From Escherichia coli (GTDB taxonomy: Bacteria > Pseudomonadota > Gammaproteobacteria > Enterobacterales > Enterobacteriaceae), in NCBI RefSeq assembly GCF_003334385.1, contig NZ_QOWN01000172.1: DNA of 515 nt. The stretch is one strand, 5' to 3'. Numbering within the stretch: position 1 is the first letter of the stretch; each line of letters begins with the position of its first letter. Below the pieces are notes generated by a model that worked only from the letters and a program-made list of their open reading frames with translations, made no database searches and was not told where the DNA came from. Both the position numbers and the translations under genes were made by a program. Of the stretch, positions 1 through 515 are shown in pieces.

Positions 1-515
1 GTTGCAATGCTGTTTATGATGCTGTCAGTGCATGGGGTAGAAAGCTGGGCATCTCCAGCAATTTTCATGACCTCAACATCTGCATATCGAATACCGAGGT
101 GTATCAGACCGGCTATGCCTGACTTAAGCCGAGCATTTTCCATAAATAGAACTTTTGCCCGCTGTTTTTCTGCTTCAAGCTCAACGCGCAGCTTCCCTAC
201 CGTTAGCGCAATATCCTCGTTCTCCTGATCGCGGCTTTTGATGTATTGCAGGTTTCTTTCCCGTTCATCCAGCAGTGCCAGCACGGTAGCCGGGTTAGCC
301 TCTGCTATGAATTCAGCGTTTGCATAAGCCTGAGCATCTGTTTCAACCAGGCAGTTAACGTGACATTCTGCAATTACGCCACCGGGTTCTCCTTTCCATT
401 TTTGACAAACAAAAACTCCTGTTAAATTGCCGTGTTGGTTAACAGATGTATGCCCTACGATGTAGCTTCCTTTAGTTGCTTTCTCTGCCTTTTCACGCAG
501 TACCTGATAGTTAAT
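1..515 (-). CDS. Ead/Ea22-like family prophage protein, internal fragment (start lies beyond position 515, stop beyond position 1)
   Basis: Reverse-complement frame with codons at 515-513, 512-510, ... down to 5-3 gives 171 codons and no stop; chance expectation for a random frame of this length is about (61/64)^171, roughly 3e-4. Translation: INYQVLREKAEKATKGSYIVGHTSVNQHGNLTGVFVCQKWKGEPGGVIAECHVNCLVETDAQAYANAEFIAEANPATVLALLDERERNLQYIKSRDQENEDIALTVGKLRVELEAEKQRAKVLFMENARLKSGIAGLIHLGIRYADVEVMKIAGDAQLSTPCTDSIINSIAT. The motifs LREKAEKATKG and NAEFIAEANPATVLALLDE followed by a charged helical stretch match my recollection of Ead/Ea22-like proteins of E. coli lambdoid prophages; no search was run. 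The only in-frame ATGs (+ 141-143 and 66-68) lie in the last third and lack a well-spaced Shine-Dalgarno, so the true start is most likely outside the window. Confidence that this is a real CDS is about 0.85; confidence in the family name is about 0.55. Confidence 0.75.
   Translation of the reverse strand, partial: MNYQVLREKAEKATKGSYIVGHTSVNQHGNLTGVFVCQKWKGEPGGVIAECHVNCLVETDAQAYANAEFIAEANPATVLALLDERERNLQYIKSRDQENEDIALTVGKLRVELEAEKQRAKVLFMENARLKSGIAGLIHLGIRYADVEVMKIAGDAQLSTPCTDSIINSIA

Follow-up and report, generated by a model that had tools for sequence, protein, structure and literature searches.

The charged 50-residue segment encoded near the middle of the stretch of Escherichia coli DNA analysed here (515 nucleotides; hereafter the window) is best read as the core of the coiled coil that forms the central stalk in an early protein of the Ea22 family, a most likely parallel stalk that would support a higher oligomer and join the modules of a non-enzymatic, pro-lysogenic protein. 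We put the probability of this reading at about 80%. The observation from which the work started was partly confirmed. Residues 82-131 of the translated frame read as quoted in the first-pass annotation and map to window positions 272..123 on the minus strand, and the richness in E, K, R and Q was real (44% of these residues vs. 17% in the remaining frame), whereas the description of the heptads was imprecise. Coordinates of the features are collected in Table 1.

Table 1. Features of the window, with positions counted from its first nucleotide.
Feature	Position	Strand	Remarks
Ead/Ea22-like gene in a lambdoid prophage, internal part	1..515	-	Residues 4-174 of 182; start and stop codons outside the window
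N-terminal module, alpha-beta3-alpha	294..515	-	In Stx-phage Ea22 variants; largely missing from lambda Ea22
One long alpha-helix (residues 75-139 of the window frame, 78-142 in full-length numbering)	99..293	-	Predicted by AF2
Universal Ea22 core block (VLALLDERERNLQYIKSRDQENEDIALTVGKLRVELE)	173..284	-	Common to lambda Ea22 residues ~37-73; DNA and protein identity
Flagged segment, window residues 82-131 (LDERERNLQYIK...ENARLK)	123..272	-	Inside the single long helix
Variant-specific helix continuation (AEKQRAKVLFMENARLK)	123..172	-	a/d register kept: A120, L123, N127, L130
Short C-terminal tail of variable sequence, first part (window residues 140-171)	1..98	-	AF2 pLDDT 39-69

Gene identity and prophage setting

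The minus-strand frame of the window contained no stop in 171 of 171 codons, and its translation matched the Pfam family Ead_Ea22 (PF13935; i-Evalue 1.8e-33; residues 1-148 against model positions 3-139 of 139) as well as PHROG 368 (E = 8.8e-59). Plus-strand ORFs (73 aa at most) were dismissed on account of the open minus frame and the Pfam match. The window was 100% identical to the gene of WP_021524342.1, an ead/Ea22-like family protein of 182 aa from E. coli 2012EL-2448, window residue n being residue n+3 of the full protein. In that genome the prophage adjoins mlrA, and the gene, which shares its strand with int, is flanked by int/xis on one side and a LexA-like repressor on the other. The homologues in phages Lys8385Vzw (98.3% identity to the window) and PhiR5_1 (96.9%; annotated as Ea22) likewise occupy an early-left (exo-xis-like) position on the int/xis strand, and the prophage region from int/xis to the repressor corresponds to the lambda exo-xis region. 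Membership of the family (PF13935 / IPR025153) follows from the profile match, the homology to the lambda core block, the early-left location and the K/R-G-E end, all of which were found; the named relatives among the top matches listed were all called ead/Ea22-like. Searches of the window returned no NCBIfam family, no PADLOC defence family and, for both strands at E <= 1, no Rfam RNA family, and a PDB sequence search with the window protein gave nothing at E <= 1.

The Ea22 family is very large (clustering at 90% identity left >8000 clusters, and at 50% identity there were 437 representatives) and strongly mosaic, with many combinations of N- and C-termini among the representatives. Of 50,697 phage records just 2 contained the full window variant, as did 58 of 5,426 E. 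coli genomes; most phage records matched only window positions 165/170-515. Partial matches were present in 2068 of the 5426 complete E. coli genomes, a single genome having as many as 8 such sites; 424 sites were on plasmids. The full gene (L005 5976-6524) has a GTG start and shares 4 bases (6521-6524) with the gene upstream of it, and the next ORF downstream (L005 5796-5974) is annotated as frameshifted. In the early-left region of PhiR5_1 there are two Ea22-annotated genes (L002 2098-2856 and 3370-3918) with one ORF between them, an arrangement suggesting that Ea22-like modules have been duplicated or stacked.

Conserved core block and mosaic joints

The 112-bp core block displayed a DNA identity of 92.9% to lambda ea22 and of 94.6% to ea22 of the Shiga-toxin (Stx) phage P32, with 4 synonymous and 3 non-synonymous differences from lambda in its 37 codons. 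At the protein level, 35 of 45 residues (78%) were identical to lambda Ea22 residues 34-78 (BLASTP E = 9e-21), and the columns of the block were highly conserved across 147 homologues. The block is bounded by sharp joints at window positions 172/173 and about 284/290 (minus strand). Its flanks showed 11-48% DNA identity and were unalignable to lambda; past joint 172/173, identity fell to 48% for P32 and 34% for lambda. The flagged segment therefore takes in 100 bases from the end of the universal block, followed by 50 variant-specific bases, and joint 172/173 splits it inside the helix; the exact placing of this joint is a point added here. The first-pass annotation had put the segment directly after a conserved motif, which is slightly off, as no part of the family is more conserved than the block that makes up the first two-thirds of the segment. 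According to the literature, the first third of the predicted coiled coil is highly similar among Ea22 of lambda, Phi24B, 933W and P27, and the rest divergent (PMC7093339).

The window variant resembles lambda Ea22 (NP_040612.1) in its length of 182 aa, its core block and its C-terminal GIRIKGE, and also in its place within the early-left operon, with int/xis to one side and the genes for recombination and the repressor to the other. In contrast, the helix sequences of the two proteins are unrelated after residue 115. With Ea22 of the Stx phages (933W/P32/P22, Phi24B and P27; V1-V3 of PMC10834534) it shares the three-part architecture and the mosaic gene, N-terminal module plus core block having ~95% DNA identity to window positions 170-515; the Stx-phage proteins differ in having another C-terminal third, longer genes (e.g., 257 aa in P32) and, in V2, DUF551.

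N-terminal module and C-terminal tail

In the AF2 model the N-terminal module was made up of the elements H6-15, E21-28, E34-43, E46-55 and H63-75 (full-length numbering), with block pLDDT values of 88-95. Its DNA was 95.8-96.7% identical to P32 ea22 and could be aligned to lambda over the first 60 bases only (63%); lambda Ea22 is without the alpha-beta3-alpha module, unlike the window variant. A specific segment of 63 aa has been described in the Stx Ea22 variants (PMC10834534). The module carries H25, H31, C40, C54, H55 and C58 (full-length numbering; window 341-443, minus strand), in the contexts GH, QH, VC and ECHVNC, and these residues were conserved in 35-40 of the ~37-41 aligned homologues having the module. 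They may form a metal-binding site. Foldseek found nothing in the PDB at E <= 0.001, and a likeness of the module to dsRBDs (7zj1_B, 2lrs and 8dfv_K) was set aside as too weak (E ~1).

The full protein ends in GIRIKGE just outside the window, as does lambda Ea22, and this ending corresponds to the K/RGE end motif of PMC7093339. The lambda C-terminal domain, which is dimeric and has been solved by NMR, is unrelated to the C-terminus of the window variant, a low-confidence tail of ~45 residues. In neither the monomer nor the tandem model did the tail (full-length 143-182) reach a pLDDT of 55, and other alleles carry it after N-termini of several different kinds (e.g., P0128 and P0130-P0134).

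Heptad register of the segment

One register was dominant in the heptad score. In this register, positions a are V78, R85, I92, N99, V106, L113, A120, N127 and I134, and positions d are L81, N88, R95, I102, L109, E116, L123, L130 and L137 (window numbering, here and below). The first-pass annotation had named eight hydrophobic residues at roughly heptad spacing; six of them (I92, I102, L109, L113, L123 and L130) share the a/d register, whereas L82 and L89 are at e, and 109 of 139 homologues have Gln in place of L89. The core includes six polar or charged residues (R85, N88, R95, N99, E116 and N127), L104 and V111 are hydrophobic yet located at f, and the conserved G107 is at b. Within the most conserved residues, 85-99, the core is formed by R, N, R and N with I92 as the sole hydrophobic; R85, N88, R95 and N99 are polar but nearly invariant across homologues.

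Shuffling of the 50 residues 82-131 gave P = 0.39 for the number of hydrophobics at a/d and P = 0.32 for the Fourier power at period 3.5, and a richer heptad score reached P = 0.085 for the same residues, or P = 0.009 when the helix was extended to 78-137. These values indicated that the heptad pattern is not clearly above chance in this sequence alone (P = 0.08-0.39 over the flagged segment). Moreover, the strongest hydrophobic periodicity in the segment was ~2.1-2.4 residues and not 3.5, which counts against a coiled coil; it is due to the alternating stretch IALTVGKLRVELE.

Parallel coiled coils with polar residues in the core exist, an example being the Asn at position a in the leucine zipper of GCN4. 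The window variant is similar to GCN4-type coiled coils in its a/d hydrophobic stripe along a long helix, in Asn at a (N99 and N127) and in its g-e' ion pairs (E112-K117 and E126-K131), whereas the much more polar core at 85-99, the hydrophobics at f and the conserved Gly set it apart; in contrast to the GCN4-type dimer, it is probably a tetramer, by homology.

The polar core, L104 and V111 at f, G107 and the DNA identity of the block leave room for an interaction surface or a recombination linker. The universal block (window 173-284) would in that case be conserved mainly in one of these two capacities, with the regular heptads downstream acting as the zipper. As a surface, the charged, polar-core stretch DERERNxQYIKxRDQENED would be the contact site for a partner from the host or the phage; as a linker, the near-identical DNA would be a homology patch for the shuffling of N- and C-terminal modules between phages. 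The near invariance of R85, N88, R95 and N99 in spite of their place in the core fits this explanation, as do the module boundaries, sharp on both sides and accompanied by many N- and C-terminal combinations, and the contrast in DNA identity between the block (93-95% to lambda and P32, only 7 codon differences from lambda in 37) and its flanks (11-48%). However, recent spread of the block may by itself account for the high DNA identity, AF2 still makes the block a continuous helix with very high confidence, and a surface for a putative partner could sit on a coiled-coil stalk, so that the two explanations are compatible. We consider this explanation rather unlikely, and a more specific form of it somewhat more doubtful still. 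In this form the 37-residue block would be less a zipper than the functional heart of every Ea22 protein, combining a charged polar-core surface, carried on a parallel helical stalk and binding a putative host target behind the pro-lysogenic effect, with a DNA homology patch through which phages exchange N- and C-terminal modules.

Heptad phase across the family

The reading of the segment as part of a coiled-coil stalk was examined at the level of the family, where the mosaicism itself serves as a test. Homologues with the anchor LTVGKLRVELE (n = 215) contained 23 mutually unrelated tails after the anchor (<40% positional identity), and these tails were read in the register fixed by the conserved block. 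In the 23 tails the share of strongly hydrophobic residues was 47% at a/d and 15% elsewhere (Fisher P = 5e-16); when RIAELE-type tails were left out, the proportions were 45 and 17% (P = 1e-8). The effect was present in both the first 14 and the second 14 residues of the tails. At the family level, a/d heptad periodicity is thus beyond chance, and the fact that unrelated tails hold one phase constitutes good evidence of a coiled-coil stripe that runs on without a break. This in-phase continuation of the block's register by C-terminal modules of unrelated sequence is a point added by the present analysis.

This coiled coil has been called before in other members of the family. Dydecka et al. 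(2020) predicted it by MARCOIL/PCOILS after the N-terminal part of Ea22 from lambda, Phi24B, 933W and P27 (PMC7093339), and MARCOIL/PCOILS, CoCoPRED and AlphaFold-Multimer were the tools used for the central coiled coil across the published work (PMC7093339, PMC8614690, PMC10834534).

Structure predictions

The AF2 monomer model, built from a 147-sequence alignment, presented a mean pLDDT of 85 and a pTM of 0.60. In this model the long helix is predicted to run without interruption over 65 residues (full-length 78-142), with block pLDDT values of 97-98 over most of its length. A helix of ~65 residues is too long for packing within a globule of 182 aa, and Foldseek yielded no globular match to the AF2 model (best TMq 0.20). 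The flagged segment is thus predicted to lie within the helix rather than in a globular fold, and the proposal of the first-pass annotation that it is an oligomerisation or interaction helix gains support both from this prediction and from the homology to the central coiled coil of lambda Ea22.

Pairing was modelled with two copies joined by a (GGGGS)10 linker (414 residues; 19-row tandem alignment). The best tandem model reached a pTM of 0.59, though ~130 of the 414 residues were below pLDDT 50; as this pTM was obtained despite the low-pLDDT residues, the halves were taken as confidently arranged to each other. In this model the two helices appear to be parallel, side by side, which fits parallel pairing. 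They were predicted to be longer than in the monomer (78-159 and 310-390), with pLDDT values of 88-94 over the original span, dropping under 70 in the C-terminal extension. The remaining four of the five tandem models were weaker (mean pLDDT 45-61).

The richness in E, K, R and Q and the confident helix obtained for the monomer without a partner would also suit a stable single alpha-helix (SAH, ER/K-type) that acts as a spacer, holding the two end modules apart without self-association. The composition did not correspond to this type, with E+K+R at 38%, strongly hydrophobic residues at 30% and opposite-charge pairs at i,i+4 in only 3 of 46 cases, and the SAH was rejected on these grounds; in addition, the a/d hydrophobics are conserved and their phase is kept in unrelated tails, and full-length lambda and P27 Ea22 are tetramers whereas the lambda C-terminal domain alone is merely a dimer (PMC10834534). 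We judge a spacer of this kind very improbable. Least probable of all is a beta-hairpin or globular packing of DIALTV-GK-LRVELE in place of a helix, which could draw on the alternation of hydrophobic and polar residues behind the 2.1-2.4 periodicity (I102, L104, V106 / G107-K108 / L109, V111, L113), on a Chou-Fasman strand propensity slightly above that for helix at residues 102-107 and on the conserved Gly107, but a hairpin in IALTVGKLRVELE was rejected on the confidence of the AF2 helix there (monomer model pLDDT 97-98, tandem model 90-94), and it disagrees with the helix on which secondary-structure and coiled-coil predictions published for homologues agree (PMC7093339) and with the lack of a globular fold match in Foldseek.

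Assembly and proposed role

For the coiled-coil stalk, the following arrangement is proposed. The helix of residues ~75-139, itself a prediction, would most likely pair in parallel with the helix of a second subunit, as predicted by the tandem model, and the pairs would probably come together as a tetramer, the state measured for Ea22 of lambda and P27. The stalk would then link and orient the conserved N-terminal module and the swappable C-terminal module, and the whole protein would be a non-enzymatic regulator or adaptor biasing the phage towards lysogeny. For the window variant, both the tetramer and the pro-lysogenic role are inferred from homologues. Published AlphaFold tetramer models of the coiled-coil region pack poorly, and even in lambda the candidate drivers of tetramer formation are the coiled coil or the N-terminal part (PMC8614690, PMC10834534). 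MALS, CD and proteolysis of Ea22 are attributed to Tong et al. 2020 (ACS Omega), as cited in PMC8614690 and PMC10834534. The gene ea22 favours lysogeny (PMC7093339), a phenotype reported for lambda and Phi24B (PMC10834534, PMC7093339), and by analogy with these pro-lysogenic homologues the regulatory or adaptor role, rather than an enzymatic one, put forward by the first-pass annotation is supported.

Significance

The coiled-coil reading of the segment is correct but ordinary. Because the coiled coil has already been published for the Ea22 family and the gene is already annotated, it adds no new biology. A polar core in the most conserved part of the helix is unusual and constitutes a modest added point; being both unusually polar and conserved, this core is an obvious target for mutagenesis. 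Few proteins of the exo-xis region have been reported to favour lysogeny in lambda and Shiga-toxin phages, and Ea22 is among them. Given this reported effect, the way in which it assembles bears on the control of toxin release.
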